Below, piece by piece: positions 1 to 8,807 of a stretch of 64,000 nucleotides of DNA. The translations under genes and the position numbers were made by a program. Within the stretch, counting starts at the first letter, position 1; each line of letters starts with the position of its first letter. Location: positions 1-64,000 of the IMG/VR virus record IMGVR_UViG_3300031977_001585; one strand, 5' to 3'. The notes below the pieces were generated by a model. The model made no database searches. It had not been told where the DNA came from and worked only from the letters and a program-made list of their open reading frames with translations. Source of the stretch: a virus.

Positions 1-3000
1 CGTGTTGATGTGCGAGTGTACTCACCAGTAAAGTTACCAGCAAAGTCACCAGCAAAACCACGTGCATAGTTACCTACGAAGTCACCAGCAAAACCACGAG
101 AGTAGTTACCGATGAAGTTACCAGCAAAGTTAGTTACTCGATCTCTAGTGAAGTCACCAACGTAGTTGGTTACACGAGTACGAGCATATGCTGAACTACG
201 GCTTCTGGTTGAAGTACGTGTGCTGTTACGTGTGTATTCACCAATGAAGTTACCTGCGAAGTTTGTTACACGGTTACGTGTGAAGTCACCAACATAGTTA
301 GTGATACGAGTACGTGCATAAGCAGAGTAACGTACACGAGTTGAAGTACGGACACTGTTACGAGTGTAGTTGCCTACAAAGTTACCAGCAAAGTTTGTAA
401 CACGGTTACGAGTAAAGTCACCAACGTAGTTAGTGATGCGAGTACGTGCGTATGCTGAATAACGAGTACGGGTTGAAGTGCGAGTAGATGTACGTGCGTA
501 GTTTCCTACGTAATCACCTGTGTAGTAACCAGTACGTACGTAGTTTCCTACGAAGTCACCTGCATAGTAACCAGTACGTGTGTAGTAACCAGTGTTGGTT
601 GACGTACGGGTTGACGTACGAGCATAGTTGCCTTCATAAGAAGCACCACGAGTACGTGCATAGTTACCTTCATAAGAAGCACCACGAGTACGTGAGTAGT
701 CACCGACATATGATGCGGCACGAGTACGTGTGTATGCTACTGTACCTACGTAATCACCAGCAAAGTTACCAACGTAGTTTCCGGTGTAGGATGCACCACG
801 ACTACGAGTGTATGCTACGTTACGGGTATAGTTGGTTGCACGAGTACGTTGATAGTTTACGGTACCTACGTAATCACCAGCAAAGTTACCTACGTAATCA
901 CCAGTATAAGTTGCGGCACGGTTACGAGTATAGTTTTGTGACCACTCACCAATGAAGTCACCTGTGAAGTCACCTGCGTAGTTTGCAGTACCGACGAAGT
1001 TACCAGTATAACTTGAAGTTCCTGTCCATGATAGACCATATCTCCATTCCGCACCATATGATACACGGAATGTACCTCTTGAATACCATACACCGTTCTT
1101 CTGTACAGAAGTTGTACCTGAAGTACCAGAAGCAAATCCAACATATACTCCGTCAGCATAGAGCATGATACCTTGCATCTCGTAGTCATATACCCACTGG
1201 GTGACGTTTGCAACGTATACGTCAGTGTTGGTCTGAGTGCCAGTAGAGGTACGTGTTGACGTAACTGAACGAGAATAGTTGACAATTGAGTTACGAGTCG
1301 AGTTAGTAGCACCACCACGTGAGTAGTCACCTGTATAGGATGCCGCACGACTACGAGTGTAGTTAGTTGCACGAGTACGAGTAAAGTTGGTCTGACGTGT
1401 GTAATCACCTAAGAAGTTACCAGTGTATCCTACTGTACGAGAGTAGTTACCAGTATAGGTGGCTGCACGTGTACGAGTATAATCTGTTGCACGAGTACGA
1501 GTAAAGTTGGTCTGACGTGTGTAGTTACCGACATACGATGCCGCACGAGTACGTGCATAGTTACCGACATACGATGCCGCACGGTTACGTGCATAGTTAC
1601 CAACATACGATGCGGCACGAGTACGTGCATAGTTACCTACGAAGTCACCTGCGTAGTATAAAGTACGAGTATATGCTAGTACACGAGTCGATGTACGTGT
1701 TGACGTACGAGTGTAATCTAGTACACGAGTCGACGTACGTACAGAGGTACGTGCGTAGTTGCCTACAAAGTCACCTGCGTAGTTGCCAGCAAACCCACGT
1801 GCGTAGTTACCAACAAAATCTCCGGTAAACGTAGTAGCATAGTTGCCTACGAAATCACCAGCAAAGTTAGTTACACGATCACGGGTATAGTTACCAGTAA
1901 AGTCACCTGTATAGTTTCCTGTGAATCCACGTGCGTAGTTACCTACGAAGTCACCAGTAAAGGTTGTCGCATAGTTACCTACGAAGTCTCCCGCAAAGTT
2001 AGTGACACGATCACGAGCATAGTTACCAATGAAGTCACCAGCAAAGTTGCCAGCAAACGCACGTGCATAGTTACCAACAAAATCTCCAACGAAATCACGG
2101 GCATAGTTGCCAATGAAGTTGCCAGCATAGTTGGTTACACGATCACGAGTATATGCTGAGTAACGAGTACGTGTTGACGTACGAGCATAAGCACTGTAAC
2201 GAGTACGAGTAGATGTACGTGTTGATACACGAGCATAGTTACCGACATAGTTGCCAGCAAACCCACGTGAGTAGTTGCCTACAAAGTTACGTGCATAGTT
2301 ACCTTGGAAACTGCGTGAGTAGTTACCAACGAAGTTACCAGCAAAGTTTGTAACACGGTTACGAGTATATGATGATACACGAACACGTGAGTAGATGCCA
2401 GCAAAGTTAGTGACACGATCACGAGTGTAGTTAGTTACACGAGTGCGGACGTAGTTATCAGAATAAGCAGAAACACGAGTACGAGTGTAAGTGCCTGCGT
2501 ATGCTGAAACACGGTTACGTGAATAAGTACCTGCGTATGCAGAGACACGGTTACGTGAGTAAGTTCCTGCATAGGTACCAGTATAAGACGACACACGAGT
2601 ACGAGTGTAGTTAGCAGAGTATGCAGAACTACGTGTACGTGAGTATGTGCCTGAGTAAGATGATACACGACCACGAGTGTACGAAGATGCACGGCTGCGT
2701 GAGAATGTACCAGTAAAGTTTGTTACACGGTTACGAGTGTATGTTGATACACGTGCTCGTGTATAAGTTCCAGCAAAGTATCCAGTGAATGCTGTTAGAC
2801 GTGTACGTGAGTAAGTCGACGTACGAGTCCTTGAGTAAACACCTGAGTATGCAGAACCACGAGTACGAGAATAGTTACCCTCGAAACCACGTGTGTAGTT
2901 TCCTGTGAAGTCACGTGAGTATGTGCCCGTGTAATCACCTACGAAAGTACGTGAGAAAGTATTGACACTATTACGTGTATATGAGGAAACACGATTTCTT

Positions 3001-3845
3001 GAGTAAGCAGAAACACGAGTTGTTACATACGATGATGGGCGTGTGCGAGTATAACTCTGATCCACGATCGTACGACGTGTGTTTGTTGCTGAACCCTTTG
3101 CCATCCAAGTACCTGCAGATGTAGGTACACCTTGTGTATCAGAACGTAATTGATACGAACCGATAGCACCAGCAGTGGCACGTAGAGTTTTTGCACGTTG
3201 ACCAAGTGTGTACTTGATCTGTGCGTCTGTCATTTCTTTAAATCCGTCGACAGAAGAACCATCATAGACAGTTGCAACTGGACGAACAACATCATAAGTA
3301 GTTGCACTTAATGATGTCTTTTTCCAAATATGGTAGTTTACAGTAGTGCCGTCTCCATGAGTATCTGTAAATACATTCTCAATATGGATACTCCAATCTA
3401 AGCCTGGAGATGTTTGAGATAGACGGAAGGATCCTTGATATTCTAATCCCGCAACGTCTTTCATGACACGTTCTGTAAGTAGGTCTAAGTCCCCGTCGTT
3501 CATTTCATAGAAACCAGGGTTAGGCCCCACGTCATAGTATCCTACTGGACGGGCAAAATCTGCACCGGACTCATCTGCTGATCCACCCACTTGCTTAAGA
3601 GCAGTAGTTGTTGTGGTACCAGTGATCTGAGATGCAGGGTGTGTCCCTGCTGGTTCGTTGTAGTACGTATCTACGAAGGAACCAATATTCACACTTCCGG
3701 TTAAACTGATATTACCGATATCACTAGCAGTGGCCTCTGCTAATGCTTCTCCAACCTTAATGGCAAGATATGCTTCTTCTGCCGGTTGGAATTCCTGTAG
3801 GTCACCATCATTAATGATTTTTAGTGGTATACTAGATGCTGACAC
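1..3845 (-). CDS. Giant stalk-and-knob repeat protein (>1281 aa, 3' end beyond the window); probable virion fibre
   Basis: Not in the ORF track because it runs off the window. GTG at 3845 gives MSASSIPLKIINDGDLQEF..., and the same frame still reads ...FAGNFTGEYTRTST at position 3. Late promoter at 3896-3903. Globular N-terminus (~3845-3060), then [FY]xG[ND]/YxRx/SxRx/Rx[STA]x tetrapeptide repeats around a central non-repetitive domain (~1020-1235). Confidence 0.9.
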   Translation of the reverse strand, partial: MSASSIPLKIINDGDLQEFQPAEEAYLAIKVGEALAEATASDIGNISLTGSVNIGSFVDTYYNEPAGTHPASQITGTTTTTALKQVGGSADESGADFARPVGYYDVGPNPGFYEMNDGDLDLLTERVMKDVAGLEYQGSFRLSQTSPGLDWSIHIENVFTDTHGDGTTVNYHIWKKTSLSATTYDVVRPVATVYDGSSVDGFKEMTDAQIKYTLGQRAKTLRATAGAIGSYQLRSDTQGVPTSAGTWMAKGSATNTRRTIVDQSYTRTRPSSYVTTRVSAYSRNRVSSYTRNSVNTFSRTFVGDYTGTYSRDFTGNYTRGFEGNYSRTRGSAYSGVYSRTRTSTYSRTRLTAFTGYFAGTYTRARVSTYTRNRVTNFTGTFSRSRASSYTRGRVSSYSGTYSRTRSSAYSANYTRTRVSSYTGTYAGTYSRNRVSAYAGTYSRNRVSAYAGTYTRTRVSAYSDNYVRTRVTNYTRDRVTNFAGIYSRVRVSSYTRNRVTNFAGNFVGNYSRSFQGNYARNFVGNYSRGFAGNYVGNYARVSTRTSTRTRYSAYARTSTRTRYSAYTRDRVTNYAGNFIGNYARDFVGDFVGNYARAFAGNFAGDFIGNYARDRVTNFAGDFVGNYATTFTGDFVGNYARGFTGNYTGDFTGNYTRDRVTNFAGDFVGNYATTFTGDFVGNYARGFAGNYAGDFVGNYARTSVRTSTRVLDYTRTSTRTSTRVLAYTRTLYYAGDFVGNYARTRAASYVGNYARNRAASYVGNYARTRAASYVGNYTRQTNFTRTRATDYTRTRAATYTGNYSRTVGYTGNFLGDYTRQTNFTRTRATNYTRSRAASYTGDYSRGGATNSTRNSIVNYSRSVTSTRTSTGTQTNTDVYVANVTQWVYDYEMQGIMLYADGVYVGFASGTSGTTSVQKNGVWYSRGTFRVSYGAEWRYGLSWTGTSSYTGNFVGTANYAGDFTGDFIGEWSQNYTRNRAATYTGDYVGNFAGDYVGTVNYQRTRATNYTRNVAYTRSRGASYTGNYVGNFAGDYVGTVAYTRTRAASYVGDYSRTRGASYEGNYARTRGASYEGNYARTSTRTSTNTGYYTRTGYYAGDFVGNYVRTGYYTGDYVGNYARTSTRTSTRTRYSAYARTRITNYVGDFTRNRVTNFAGNFVGNYTRNSVRTSTRVRYSAYARTRITNYVGDFTRNRVTNFAGNFIGEYTRNSTRTSTRSRSSAYARTRVTNYVGDFTRDRVTNFAGNFIGNYSRGFAGDFVGNYARGFAGDFAGNFTGEYTRTST

Positions 3846-3895
3846 GATATCGTCTCTCTTTTAAAAGTTAAAGTTTAGTGGTTAATGACGTAGAT

Positions 3896-3903
3896 TATTT
3901 ATA
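3896..3903 (-). promoter_or_regulatory. T4-type late promoter
   Basis: TATAAATA on the minus strand ~50 nt upstream of the GTG at 3845. Confidence 0.85.
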
Positions 3904-3922
3904 CGAAATCAGATCGTCACTT

Positions 3923-4402
3923 TTAACTTTTTTGAGGCCAGACCACTTCCTGTACAGAAGTAACACCATCTAGGTGGTCGGTGATATCTCTTAACTGCTG
4001 CCGGTAGTTTCTCCATGACTGCAACTCTTGCTCAGATAGAGGAGCATCAAGTGCTTGAGTCCAGTCACAAGCAGTGAGTAATTGGTCTCGAATCATACGA
4101 ACATCTCTAACCAAATCTTCGTGGTTCCATGTCCAATCTAAAGACTCGAAGTTCCACGTTGCATGCTTGTTTGGTGGTAACCCTGTGAATTTAAAGGTTT
4201 TTGTTGATGCATCAAACCAGTGATAATCCATGAAGTAGGACAAGTCACTGCATCCTGCAGGAAGACTATCCTCATGAACATAGATAATACGTTGAGAACC
4301 ATCGGGAGTAAACCCCTCTGAATCAATCTTCACTTGCGGAAGAGAGATCCTTTCTAGTCTTCCTGTCTGCGTATTAGCATATACAACATAGCATAATTTC
4401 AT
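3923..4402 (-). CDS. Tail fibre assembly chaperone
   Basis: C-terminal RDQLLTACDWTQALDAPL...WRNYRQQLRDIT...VVWPQK motif typical of phage tail assembly chaperones; directly follows a fibre gene. Confidence 0.85.
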   Translation of the reverse strand: MKLCYVVYANTQTGRLERISLPQVKIDSEGFTPDGSQRIIYVHEDSLPAGCSDLSYFMDYHWFDASTKTFKFTGLPPNKHATWNFESLDWTWNHEDLVRDVRMIRDQLLTACDWTQALDAPLSEQELQSWRNYRQQLRDITDHLDGVTSVQEVVWPQKS

Positions 4403-4403
4403 T

Positions 4404-7400
4404 TTAACTTCTCGTTACTTGATAATAGGTCATAATAGGTCCACCAGAGTAGTCTGTCTCGATGTAATTTCCACGAGTATATGTGAATCCACCAGTTGTT
4501 ATTGTAGTATCATTTTCACTCTGACCTGATAGTGGTTCAGAAAAATACACTTCAGTCCCATTCCATCGAATCTGTATCGTCACAAGATCTTCACCTTCTG
4601 GACTAGGAACAAGTGATACTCTCCACCAAGTGCCAGAGTTAGACGTATCTGTCGTCTGAGGTGGTGGTTCTGAGTTGACATCTGACGAAGTAGGTGCTAC
4701 CGAAACCGGAGTAGTTACCAAATAACTACCTGCTGTGATCCATTGACTACCATTGAACACTTTTATATCATAGGTATATGATGTCCCATTAGGTGGGATC
4801 TCATTTACCGTGAAGTTATTTAGACCACTTGTTACTGTAACATCTGTTAAAATGAGAGCATTATCACGATAAACTCTCAACGACACAGGAGTAGACCCCT
4901 CTGTCAAATGTGTTACTGACAGTTGATGTGTTGTGTCATTTTCCGGATGCACTATTCGATTAGAGGTTGTGGCAAAAATACCCGAATCATTATCATATAA
5001 CGTGAACTCTTTCTCCGCAAGAACCTCAACGTTGCTACTACCCATTGGTTCGTTGATACTGGAAGTGTCATTCCCAGTACGTAACTGTGCCCTGAAGGTT
5101 TCTCCTTGCCATCCCATTTCTCCAACACCGGCTGATACTGTACTGGTTCGTGTATAGTTGCCTATGAACTCACCCGTATAATACGTCTTGGCACCATCGG
5201 AGTATGAAGAGGTTCTAGTTCTTATAAAGTCTCTAGTTGAGGTTCTAGTAGAATTCCTTGTCGATGGTACATAATTCGCATAGTTCCCCAAGTAACTTGG
5301 TGTCCTCACATAACTGCGTGAATCTGTAAAGTCACGTGTATAGTTACCTGTAAAGTTACCAGTGTACTCTCCAATAAAGGACAACACCCTACTGAAAGCA
5401 GTGACTCTTATATCGGTTCGAGAACTAACACGTGTGTAGTAAGAGATCGGATATCTACTATATGAGTCTACAATGTTGCGACTATAATTACCTTCGTAGT
5501 TACCTTCATACGATGGAGATCTGCTATACGTTCCTGTATAGTCACCTATGAAATCTCCAACAAATGATCTCTGATAGTTGCCCTCAAAATTACCACCGAA
5601 GTCTCGATTATAGTTTCCGGTGAATGTACCAGCATAGGAGAACACGGACTCTCGTACACGAGTTGACGTACGACTAGACGTTCGTTGATAGTTAACCGCA
5701 TGATTCTCTACACTACCTTCTATGATGACTTGTCGAGTAGACGCACCTACATAATCTCCCGTATAGATGCGAGTATAAATTCCAGTTCTCTCATAGTTAC
5801 CCGTATACTGACCAGCAAAGTTTCTGTTATAAGTTCCTGTGTATTCCGATACAAATCCTCTTTCATAATTGCCTAAGAAACCTGGTGTGTATGTGCTAAC
5901 TCGGTTTTTAAGATATGTGCTGTATCTGGTAACAACCCTTCCACTTGTCTTGGTTGATATTCGAGAGTTCTCTCCCACGAAATTACGTGTATAATATCCA
6001 AATATCTCGACCATACCACCCGCATCGGGATCGAATATAAATCGACTAGAAACTTTTGTGACGTTGCCGACAAAGGATCGAGTGTAATTTCCAAAATAAC
6101 TTCTACTATAGTCCCCATTATAAGCACGACCATAATTACCAATATAGGTAAGAGTACCTGTATATGAAGAGACTCTATTTCTAGTAGAACTACCTCCCAC
6201 CGATCTAATCCGTTGATAGTTACCTATAAAGTCTCGGGTATAATTGCCTACAAAGTTTTGACTAGCAGTTGGTGTGCTTGTACTGGTGTTTTCTGCTATT
6301 TTATAATCTTCAACAAATGTAGTGGCAGTTTGAAGTGTCCCTCTATGATAATATTTACCTCCTACAGGACCGACAATGGATGATACTCTTGCATCAGCCA
6401 TACTATCGTATGCACTACTGGTGTAAACGAGTGTTCCATTGTAGTATAATTGAATAAAGTATTCGTACGTAATATCTCCTCTACCGTCACCAAATCCACC
6501 TTCTACGAATCGAGCAAGTCTCCATACGTATTGAGGATTACCATTAGTGATAGAATATAAGAACGGATCAGACCCACTACCACTGACTCTGGTTCGTTCG
6601 TAGGTAGAGGTTCTAGTTCTCTCGTAGTTGCCTTCGTACGAAGCATTTCCCGTAAAATTACCCACAAACGTACGAGAGTAAGTTGAGGTTCTTGAGTAGT
6701 TCCCCTCAAAGTTGCGAGAGTAATTACCGACAAACGTACGAGAGTATCCCCCTTCATATGACTCGACACGTGTACGTGTATAGTCTACCAGATTTGCGTA
6801 CGAAGACGTTCTGGTTCGAGCAAACTCACCAGTATAAGTAATCGTTCTGGTGTAGTTACCTACGAAACCACGTTGATAGTTACCAACAAACGTTCGGGTG
6901 CTCTCTGTCCCACCCCTAGTTCGAGTGTATGCGGAGATTCGAGTTCGAGCATAAGTTCCGTCGTATGTGGACAGTCTTGCTCTCGTTGAGATTCTTTGAT
7001 ACGGCACTTGTCGGGTAGATGTTATCGAGTATCGATAACGGCCATAATTTACCTGTGGAACGTAATCCCCTATGAAGTTGCCCAGAAAATTTCCAGTGTA
7101 GGTTAGAGTTCGAGTAAAGTCGAATGGTCTTTGTCTTTGATAAGACGATACTCGTGTTCGACTTGATACTCGATTATACGCAGAAAGTCTCGTGCGTGTA
7201 GACGTACGAGTAAATGTCTTCGACGTTGACAACTCTGGTATTCGAGTTCTAGTGTAATTACCAGCGTAGTTAGACGGACGGTTTCGTTGATACGTCTCGG
7301 TATATGTACCTGGTCTATAGGTTATCTCAAGTCTACCTTCTGGGTCATTCGGTATAGGATTCCAGTTGTAGTAGATGGTGCCCGTATAAAATCTTGAGTA

Positions 7401-8807
7401 GTTACCCTCGAATGATAACCCGTCTGAGTAATTACGTTCGAATGTACTCGTACGTGTACTATTCCTTGTCGACAGTCGAGTGTATAGACCTTCATAGTCA
7501 ACTGTTCTTACATAGTCACCCGTGTACCCTATTGTCCTTGTGCTTGTTCTAGTATAAGTGCTAAGACGGGTATAGTCTCCGGTAAAGTCTCCGGTATAGT
7601 ACCCTATTGTATTACCAATAAAGTCACGGTTGAATCCTGTTGCAATATCAACGATTGACTGTCTGGTAAACGACCCTGTTCTTTCAATGGTTACATTATA
7701 TGATGTAGTGTCATTATAAGAGACAAACGTTGCTGTATGCGCAGACCCCGTAAATGTAGAAAAGTTTGCAGTAAAGTCTTTCTGTGCTACACCGTCTGAC
7801 CCTGAGAGTCTGAATAATTTAACGTGATAATTGTTAGGTTCGTTAGTCGTTGCTATTAGACTAATCGATTGTCCTTCAATTATATTATCGACACTAGAGA
7901 ATTGCAATGCTCCCTGTAGACTAGATTCCTCTTCGTTTTGTTGACTAGTTCCTGAAGAAGACCCTTCTAGTTTGGCCGCAAACAATGCGTTCAGGTTCCT
8001 GAAGTTTTGATATATTTCTTGTAGACCTGACTCATCATAGTTAATTAAGATAGAGTCGTAATACCGAACCTGTGTAGTGCTGAACCCCAGTCCGTACAGA
8101 TTAGTTGTAATTTGGTTGTCTTGAAAAGCACCACTAATAGCACCGGATAAAGACCATTCAATATTAATATAGCATCCAGCACTATGATTTAAAAACGGGT
8201 TGCCTAAGACGGTCCAGTTCTGACTTGGTGGTAGATAGGTTTCAATATTAAAAATATTATTGGTGATAAGTGCTCTGGAATCAAAAGCAATTCTACCCTG
8301 TGATGTCTTTATCTGTAGACCATATTCATCGTCGTTTAACGCAGATGAATTTTCTATAATCTCTGCTGTCTCACGGACAATAAAGTAGTCCATGTCCACA
8401 TCCCAATCAGCAGTCACATAGGTCTGGTTTAAATATCCACCATTGGTAAGTCCACGACCTTTGAATCTGTAGGTATTGCTTAGTGCATCACTTGCCGTTC
8501 GTGCTAGGAAAAACACTTCAGGGTTTGAGATAGTAACGTCTTGCGTAGTCCCATTAAAATTGGTAATTGCGTCGGGTACAACTATTGGACCAAATCCGGT
8601 TCCAGTTAAATCTGGATTGTATCCGGTTGCGGTTGGACGTTTTACAAAGACAAAGTCTTCTTTGGTGAGTTCGGAATCTAAGGTAAACGAATGCCCACGA
8701 CCTGCTGCTACAACTCTGTAGTTAAGAAGATCGAGAGTAGTATCGGCAATAATGAAATTGTTACCGTTGCCGTCATTGCCTTGTACCTTTAGACCGTAGG
8801 TCATCAT
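4404..8807 (-). CDS. 1467-aa fibre-like protein with a mirror-repeat stalk inserted in a Calx-beta-like domain
   Basis: N-terminal YGL[KQ].....G...FDS motifs; the same tetrapeptide repeats as the 1-3845 ORF; central and C-terminal copies of a ~70-aa aromatic domain; flanked by chaperone genes. Confidence 0.85.
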   Translation of the reverse strand: MMTYGLKVQGNDGNGNNFIIADTTLDLLNYRVVAAGRGHSFTLDSELTKEDFVFVKRPTATGYNPDLTGTGFGPIVVPDAITNFNGTTQDVTISNPEVFFLARTASDALSNTYRFKGRGLTNGGYLNQTYVTADWDVDMDYFIVRETAEIIENSSALNDDEYGLQIKTSQGRIAFDSRALITNNIFNIETYLPPSQNWTVLGNPFLNHSAGCYINIEWSLSGAISGAFQDNQITTNLYGLGFSTTQVRYYDSILINYDESGLQEIYQNFRNLNALFAAKLEGSSSGTSQQNEEESSLQGALQFSSVDNIIEGQSISLIATTNEPNNYHVKLFRLSGSDGVAQKDFTANFSTFTGSAHTATFVSYNDTTSYNVTIERTGSFTRQSIVDIATGFNRDFIGNTIGYYTGDFTGDYTRLSTYTRTSTRTIGYTGDYVRTVDYEGLYTRLSTRNSTRTSTFERNYSDGLSFEGNYSRFYTGTIYYNWNPIPNDPEGRLEITYRPGTYTETYQRNRPSNYAGNYTRTRIPELSTSKTFTRTSTRTRLSAYNRVSSRTRVSSYQRQRPFDFTRTLTYTGNFLGNFIGDYVPQVNYGRYRYSITSTRQVPYQRISTRARLSTYDGTYARTRISAYTRTRGGTESTRTFVGNYQRGFVGNYTRTITYTGEFARTRTSSYANLVDYTRTRVESYEGGYSRTFVGNYSRNFEGNYSRTSTYSRTFVGNFTGNASYEGNYERTRTSTYERTRVSGSGSDPFLYSITNGNPQYVWRLARFVEGGFGDGRGDITYEYFIQLYYNGTLVYTSSAYDSMADARVSSIVGPVGGKYYHRGTLQTATTFVEDYKIAENTSTSTPTASQNFVGNYTRDFIGNYQRIRSVGGSSTRNRVSSYTGTLTYIGNYGRAYNGDYSRSYFGNYTRSFVGNVTKVSSRFIFDPDAGGMVEIFGYYTRNFVGENSRISTKTSGRVVTRYSTYLKNRVSTYTPGFLGNYERGFVSEYTGTYNRNFAGQYTGNYERTGIYTRIYTGDYVGASTRQVIIEGSVENHAVNYQRTSSRTSTRVRESVFSYAGTFTGNYNRDFGGNFEGNYQRSFVGDFIGDYTGTYSRSPSYEGNYEGNYSRNIVDSYSRYPISYYTRVSSRTDIRVTAFSRVLSFIGEYTGNFTGNYTRDFTDSRSYVRTPSYLGNYANYVPSTRNSTRTSTRDFIRTRTSSYSDGAKTYYTGEFIGNYTRTSTVSAGVGEMGWQGETFRAQLRTGNDTSSINEPMGSSNVEVLAEKEFTLYDNDSGIFATTSNRIVHPENDTTHQLSVTHLTEGSTPVSLRVYRDNALILTDVTVTSGLNNFTVNEIPPNGTSYTYDIKVFNGSQWITAGSYLVTTPVSVAPTSSDVNSEPPPQTTDTSNSGTWWRVSLVPSPEGEDLVTIQIRWNGTEVYFSEPLSGQSENDTTITTGGFTYTRGNYIETDYSGGPIMTYYQVTRS

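Follow-up and report, generated by a model that had tools for sequence, protein, structure and literature searches.

Matched length changes in the two repeat arms of a putative fold-back fibre protein from a marine virus

Introduction

How can two distant halves of one gene change in length by equal amounts and at corresponding places? The question is raised by a large open reading frame (3845..3, minus strand, 1281 codons present) in the stretch of DNA analyzed here, positions 1 to 64,000 of the IMG/VR virus record IMGVR_UViG_3300031977_001585 (64,000 nucleotides (nt), hereafter the window). This frame contains the whole of a repeat-rich zone (nt 100-2130), in which an initial annotation had described tandem repeats of equal size facing each other in an outgoing and a returning arm of a stalk, and for which it had offered either strong selection for register or an unknown mechanism of coupled expansion as the explanation. 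Very probably the gene belongs to a marine T4-like (Kyanoviridae-like) myovirus and its product is a virion fibre, built as one very long fold-back; we refer to it as the fibre gene. The encoded protein comprises a conserved N-terminal domain (N-domain), an outgoing arm, a non-repeat knob at the turn and a returning arm. Window position 1 is the end of the 78.5-kb viral contig and the frame runs past it, so the 3′ end of the gene is missing.

Complementarity of the two arms

The arms of the window protein are strictly periodic in steps of four residues: 57% of their aromatic residues have another aromatic at +4, compared with 0-7% for the remaining offsets as far as +7 (1% at +7 itself). T, R, Y, G, A, S, N, V, and F account for 93% of their residues, and His, Cys, Lys, and Met are all absent (0 His in 946 arm residues); 0 His were likewise found in the arms of L008, a complete orthologue from IMG/VR. 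When residue i is placed opposite residue 1813-i, for residues 565-860, the arms form 42 Gly:Arg (G:R) and 31 aromatic:aromatic pairs with 0 G:G and 0 R:R, every other register giving at most 26 G:R pairs. This one register is kept over about 300 positions, up to the contig end, and such a constant position sum is as expected of an antiparallel ladder.

The same property is seen in the homologues when each outgoing arm is aligned with its own returning arm reversed (fold-back alignment). In 11 complete close homologues, 238-670 positions could be paired, with 24-89 G:R pairs as compared with 2-7 G:G plus R:R pairs. L008 has 621 paired positions and a fold-back score of 285, against 138 for parallel pairing and a mean of 148 (maximum 163) when the tetrads of its returning arm are shuffled; with a crude fold-back score, 82 of 84 diverse complete members beat their own tetrad-shuffled control. 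The protein of phage C48C1 reaches 1023 paired positions. A segmentation of 99 family members by a periodicity mask, which is noisy as STR-rich stretches break it and which was superseded by the fold-back alignment, gave arm lengths correlating at r 0.64-0.68 and placed the largest gap centrally in 35% of cases (14% by chance), and a sliding-window search for the register was too degenerate in the basal half.

A single 8-residue bulge is conserved in the 9 larger of the 11 proteins tested. It sits in the outgoing arm, at approximately residues 378-492, at a comparable depth across the clade (L006-L026, L050-L059, C48C1), and may be a kink or hinge.

Matched indels among close homologues

The initial annotation had expected insertions and deletions (indels) in one arm to co-occur with equal indels at the mirrored position of the other, and the homologues bear this out. 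Exactly three arm indel pairs separate the window protein from L008, with position sums of 1812-1818: a pair of 16 amino acids (aa) each at residues 607 and 1189, one of 12 aa each at residues 808 and 1010, and one of 10 aa each at residues 845 and 969. Indels of at least 8 aa were then compared among 12 complete close homologues in 36 comparisons, the closest of which contain paired changes only. Examples are a 28-aa pair at depths 547 and 548 (L012/L025), a 40-aa pair at depths 327 and 332 (L024/L016) and, between L026 and L016, a series of 12, 16, 30, and 28 aa mirrored by 12, 16, 30, and 28 aa; further equal pairs of 124, 60, and 72 aa were evident among close homologues. Overall, 50 of the 144 outgoing-arm indels have an exactly equal partner of the same sign at mirrored depth, whereas swapping the returning-arm indel sets between unrelated comparisons left 3.7 on average and 10 at most. 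Within one clade, whose arms range more than four-fold in length, ten or more separate indel pairs are seen, sized between 6 and 124 residues.

Two other sources of such a pattern were considered and rejected. An artefact of the aligner is ruled out by the independent alignment of the two arms together with the swap control, and a β-helix with a fixed coil length by the indel sizes, which are mostly multiples of 4 and not of 12 or 16.

Mirrored repeat arrays

The arrays called with Tandem Repeats Finder (TRF) and a separate repeat finder are all real, in frame and arranged as mirror images (Table 1). Their borders sum to 2210-2253 nt, placing the mirror centre at about nt 1127, within the knob. 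For the outermost arrays, the position in facing arms and the three copies in the returning arm described in the initial annotation are correct, but the units repeat every 132 nt (44 aa), not every 120 nt; its 36-nt and inner 120-nt pairs are likewise present and mirrored, and a 42-nt pair had been omitted.

Table 1. Coordinates of the fibre gene features in the window
Feature	Position (nt)	Strand	Description
N-terminal domain	3060..3845	-	residues 1-262; non-repeat, conserved, family signature
Outgoing arm	1230..3059	-	residues 263-872; tetrapeptide repeats, [G/R]-x-[Y/F]-x periodicity
48-nt module, outgoing arm	1980..2027	-	residues 607-622; missing in L008; bounded by 11-nt direct repeat GGTAACTATGC
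44-aa unit (132 nt) x3.0, outgoing arm	1756..2153	-	G-rich: RDRVTNFAGDFVGNYATTFTGDFVGNYARGF...
Three 14-aa units, outgoing arm	1626..1751	-	two RTSxRTSTRVLxYT and one RTLYYAGDFVGNYA; TRF: 42 nt x2.1 at 1663-1751
12-aa unit (36 nt) x3.4, outgoing arm	1515..1637	-	RTRAASYVGNYA
40-aa unit (120 nt) x2, outgoing arm	1317..1529	-	85% copy identity; repeat family D14
Knob at turn	1011..1229	-	residues 873-945, 73 aa; non-repeat; divergent between orthologues
40-aa unit (120 nt) x2, returning arm	681..920	-	71% copy identity; repeat family D18; opposite 1317..1529
12-aa unit (36 nt) x3.2, returning arm	616..730	-	RTRGASYEGNYA; opposite 1515..1637
Three 14-aa units, returning arm	486..611	-	one STR type and two YYAGDF type; TRF: 42 nt x2.3 at 490-586
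44-aa unit (132 nt) x2.9, returning arm	96..479	-	R-rich: RTSTRTRYSAYARTRITNYVGDFTRNRVTNFAGNF...; opposite 1756..2153
48-nt module, returning arm	234..281	-	residues 1189-1204; missing in L008; bounded by 9-nt direct repeat ACACGTAAC; mirrors 1980..2027
Returning arm	3..1010	-	residues 946-1281; incomplete

The 14-aa units of the returning arm are complementary to the outgoing-arm units that they face. Tandem copies within each arm imply local duplication, and the identities between copies are themselves mirrored, at 80/79/72% in the outgoing and 80/75/71% in the returning arm (81% in either arm for the 14-aa units), as expected when an imbalance must be compensated soon. The arms are not unrelated in sequence: the 36-nt array of one arm is directly related to that of the other (80% over 113 nt, family D5), and RxRVTNF modules are present in both arms. 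In agreement with the initial annotation, complementarity between the arms was not found at the DNA level, nt 1-4000 containing just two weak inverted repeats (25 nt at 76% and 16 nt at 81%), and a DNA hairpin or inverted repeat as the basis of the symmetry is thereby ruled out.

Junctions, one-arm variants and exchanged blocks

The two 48-nt modules that the window carries and L008 lacks are 69% identical to each other, and each has its own junction repeat, which points to two ordinary repeat-mediated events and not to one donor copied twice. For the 16-aa pair (window/L008) and the 40-aa pair (L024/L016) the flanking arms are 90-100% identical on both the inner and the outer side, so that a single cassette swap is insufficient to produce them; alignment of the DNA junctions of the 40-aa pair within the repeats is ambiguous. 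A different pattern surrounds the turn, where the knob and inner arms are 17-50% identical amid a 90-100% identical background and the block of divergence extends about equally far to either side of the turn. Judged by these identities, the knob with its inner arms clearly appears to be exchanged as one block between phages, and the 28-aa (L012/L025), 12-aa and 10-aa (both window/L008) pairs lie inside or at such blocks.

Two candidates for unbalanced variants turned up in metagenomes. L033 (3909.., Ga0181390_1000358) differs from L026 (10001..) by 0-7 DNA mismatches and otherwise only in lacking 258 nt (86 aa) of the outgoing arm, an in-frame deletion whose junction is a 10-nt imperfect repeat and not a typical collapse site. 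C48C1 (L005 6021-6470, OQ984149.1) carries an exact tandem duplication of 225 nt (x2.0, 100% identity) where a lateral domain meets the returning arm, with no partner in the outgoing arm. Both are candidates for natural unbalanced variants, and either could be an assembly error.

The protein family and its elaborations

A search with the N-domain retrieved 342 cluster representatives at E<=1e-3. Among the homologues retrieved, 99 are complete, with lengths of 397-3347 aa and a common layout in which two arms, separated by a variable middle, follow the N-domain; all 99 carry the C-terminal motif ETYTLYVR[VI]A. The N-domain of the window protein is 95% identical to that of L008 and 66% identical to that of C48C1. 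L008 is 1595 aa long, which is the length expected from the mirror centre, and ends in the same motif; judged by this orthologue, about 290 further residues of the returning arm and the C-terminal motif are missing from the window. The window protein has no match in Pfam or PHROGs, a Pfam search with the knob was likewise negative, a sequence search of the PDB found nothing, and the ESM Atlas returned unnamed viral clusters only, with scores of at most 0.85. In the literature the family and the phage C48C1 gene were found without description. The family is large and unnamed (no Pfam or PHROG name), and is defined here by the N-domain, two tetrad arms and the ETYTLYVR C-terminus.

The largest member is CDS0201 of phage C48C1 (WJE88074.1, annotated "hypothetical protein"), which lies in the same gene neighborhood as the window gene and is a true homologue, sharing the arms, a homologous knob and the C-terminal motif. 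It differs in its length of 3347 aa, the extra length being five lateral globular insertions of approximately 100-315 aa, all in the returning arm and without a match in Pfam. Several metagenome homologues have one lateral domain of about 230 aa. In C48C1 (L005 1-10044), L031, L066, and L069 the lateral globular domains fall in the returning arm every time and the rungs stay balanced; in L045 an apparent non-repeat insertion of about 75 aa is found in the outgoing arm instead. Lateral domains are thus tolerated mostly in the returning arm.

Variation extends to both ends of the stalk. L065 (10001.., Ga0209092_10000012), a protein of 1624 aa with 665 paired positions, has a tight turn only (residues 926/940), so the knob is not obligatory in the family. 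P0004, an incomplete homologue of 1798 aa, contains FG-GAP-like and laminin-G-like repeats (PF14312, PF13385) inside its N-terminal domain, and hence the probable attachment end is able to bear extra modules too.

Gene neighborhood and structure prediction

On the same strand as the fibre gene lie a tail-fibre assembly chaperone gene directly upstream (3923-4402), genes for several very large structural proteins and one for a gp8-like baseplate wedge protein. Among relatives of the region, phage C48C1 (Kyanoviridae) alone is annotated, and its gene order is conserved. This neighborhood suggests a tail-fibre role for the gene product, of which the conserved N-terminal domain is probably the attachment end. 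A second large protein of 1467 aa (window 4404-8807, minus strand) has similar tetrapeptide arms flanking a central non-repeat knob; its N- and C-terminal architecture is different, without the ETYTLYVR end.

Structure prediction was informative for a short member of the family, P0059, a complete homologue of 436 aa modelled with AlphaFold from a 76-row alignment. Its N-domain is predicted with a predicted local distance difference test (pLDDT) above 90, and two long strands are modelled at residues 260-294 and 398-434 (position sum about 693), the domain-proximal ends of which are confident. What the model supports is that the hairpin closes at the base, and nothing beyond. Foldseek searches of PDB and BFVD with it gave no match at E<=0.001, and a wide search with VIA-align reached a best Z of 6.9, within the range of chance. 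The N-domain model compared by VIA-align with the MABP / MACPF C-terminal β-prism-like fold gave Z 5.2-6.9 at a root-mean-square deviation of 3.3-4.9 Å over 113-125 residues, where the usual best-chance level is 7-8; no convincing known relative of the predicted N-domain fold came out of these comparisons.

Discussion

We suggest that the chain would leave the N-terminal domain as a tetrapeptide-repeat arm running out to the variable knob, from where a second arm of equal length would return antiparallel along the first, to end as the conserved strand ETYTLYVRVA beside the N-domain. Residues i and M-i, M being the constant position sum, would then stand opposite each other, aromatic against aromatic and Gly against Arg, a pattern that the geometry of a two-stranded β-ladder would fit. 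As every rung needs a partner, lasting length changes would have to involve equal numbers of residues at matching depth in both arms. Each arm is a tandem-repeat array, in which blocks may be gained or lost independently, either through slippage or where short direct repeats recombine unequally; changes in one arm would be purged or quickly compensated, and recombination between phages would transfer knob and inner arms jointly as a balanced cassette and hold paired indels together. This whole account, of a fold-back fibre whose arms undergo separate repeat-mediated changes that selection for register then sifts, is in our view the best reading of the data, with a probability of roughly 80%. 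The selection for register put forward in the initial annotation fits what we observed, whereas the data can do without its alternative, an unknown mechanism of coupled expansion, given the separate junctions, the modules of 69% identity and the candidate one-arm variants; a dedicated mechanism coupling the two arms is unsupported.

A number of points weigh against this reading, and it should be interpreted with them in mind. Selection is read from the pattern, so its role as a filter is indirect, and 94 of the 144 indels have no exact partner, many of them in the more divergent comparisons, where the ambiguity of repeat alignments could hide real imbalance. The pairing score was devised after the G:R pattern had been noticed, and the parallel and tetrad-shuffle controls exclude periodicity, not all biases. 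Antiparallel pairing within a chain and between chains fit the data alike. On the structural side, the AlphaFold model of the window stalk (residues 565-1250, 11-row alignment) was unusable at pLDDT 28, the middle of the P0059 model falls below pLDDT 50, and the mutual pairing of its base strands is suggested by their lengths and not by coordinates. The tail-fibre role, finally, is drawn solely from neighboring genes.

Could both members of a pair arise in one coupled mutational event, be it a template-switch episode or gene conversion through which a length change in one arm is copied into its counterpart? The paired arrays are diverged internally to a similar degree, and the RxRVTNFAG and 12-aa units (80% identical across arms) are of the same family in both arms, so ectopic pairing is conceivable; equal ages are, however, likewise expected under quick compensation. 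The 48-nt modules are only 69% identical and their junction microhomologies differ, flanking modules occur in reversed order between the arms, leaving conversion tracts without collinear flanks, and a shifted conversion patch would lengthen one arm and shorten the other. With candidate one-arm events seen in L033 and C48C1 as well, we consider a coupled origin very improbable. Exchange of cassettes as the only process, by which recombination replaces the balanced inner hairpin between one point in each arm and no arm ever changes length alone, fits the divergent, roughly symmetric blocks around the turn and the 28-, 12-, and 10-aa pairs at or within them. It does not account for the 16- and 40-aa pairs, flanked on both sides by nearly identical arms, nor for the tandem copies that mark local duplication, and as it reshuffles balanced variants it leaves their first origin unexplained; as a complete explanation it is quite unlikely.

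The remaining alternative concerns the partner and not the constraint: the outgoing arm of one copy could pair with the returning arm of its neighbor in a swapped dimer or trimer, which would leave the evolutionary constraint unchanged. Trimers of interwoven chains are the usual make-up of phage fibres. In the needle of T4 gp37, domain D10 is formed by residues 811-881 and 1010-1026 of the trimer chains, with the tip domain between them (PMC6957217), and the failure of the monomer model of the window stalk would also agree with pairing between subunits. The C-terminal strand of P0059 is, on the other hand, confidently modelled with the N-domain of the same chain, and we regard pairing between subunits as unlikely.

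Relation to known systems and significance

The gp37 needle, the receptor-binding tip of the long tail fibre, is the closest parallel in course, as its chain likewise goes to the distal tip and comes back. Such an out-and-back chain, and with it the stalk of outgoing and returning arm, is supported in the family by fold-back sequence complementarity, the balance of the arms and the base strands of the P0059 model. gp37 also needs a dedicated chaperone, and a chaperone gene adjoins the fibre gene of the window. The differences are considerable: Pfam, PHROGs, and PDB searches gave no sequence or profile relation to gp37 or the collar domain, and the needle has about 200 residues and His-x-His iron sites, whereas the arms here, those of the window being devoid of His, have 240-1030 residues each and a tetrapeptide Gly/Arg/aromatic pattern.

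The best-known case of stalk halves that must co-vary is that of SMC/Rad50, where one chain folds back so that N- and C-terminal stretches pair over a long distance, and where the length of the coiled-coil arms is tuned and register must be kept (PMC5344682). Those arms are α-helical with heptads and conserved in length in SMC; the arms described here have a period of 4, are Gly-rich, have no predicted helix, only strands at the base, and differ widely in length within one clade. The fibre protein thus shares the logic of fold-back and co-variation with gp37 and SMC and none of their sequence, periodicity or metal sites. On a smaller scale, the ultralong complementarity-determining region (CDR) H3 of bovine antibodies is a two-stranded β-ribbon stalk bearing a small knob, and its stalk length differs among molecules; its strands are of about 10-20 residues each, it arises somatically and it lacks a repeat code.

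The broader proposal, which we consider evenly poised, is that of a previously undescribed fibrous fold: an antiparallel ribbon of two strands per chain, hundreds of residues long, held in register by a tetrapeptide code (aromatic:aromatic, Gly:Arg), evolving in length by quantised paired steps and able to present receptor-binding knobs at the turn and as lateral insertions. If true, it would represent a natural, modular and length-adjustable display stalk of abundant ocean phages, and protein designers would gain from its four-residue pairing code, which aligns hundreds of rungs, a simple recipe for rigid β-ribbon spacers made to a chosen length. For the study of evolution, the family would offer an unusually clean natural case of compensatory length change, in which one could measure directly how the two halves of a protein co-vary. 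In the marine T4-like phages themselves the family sits among baseplate and tail-fibre genes; with knobs that are swapped and extra domains placed along the stalk, the fibre is a likely determinant of host recognition and reach.

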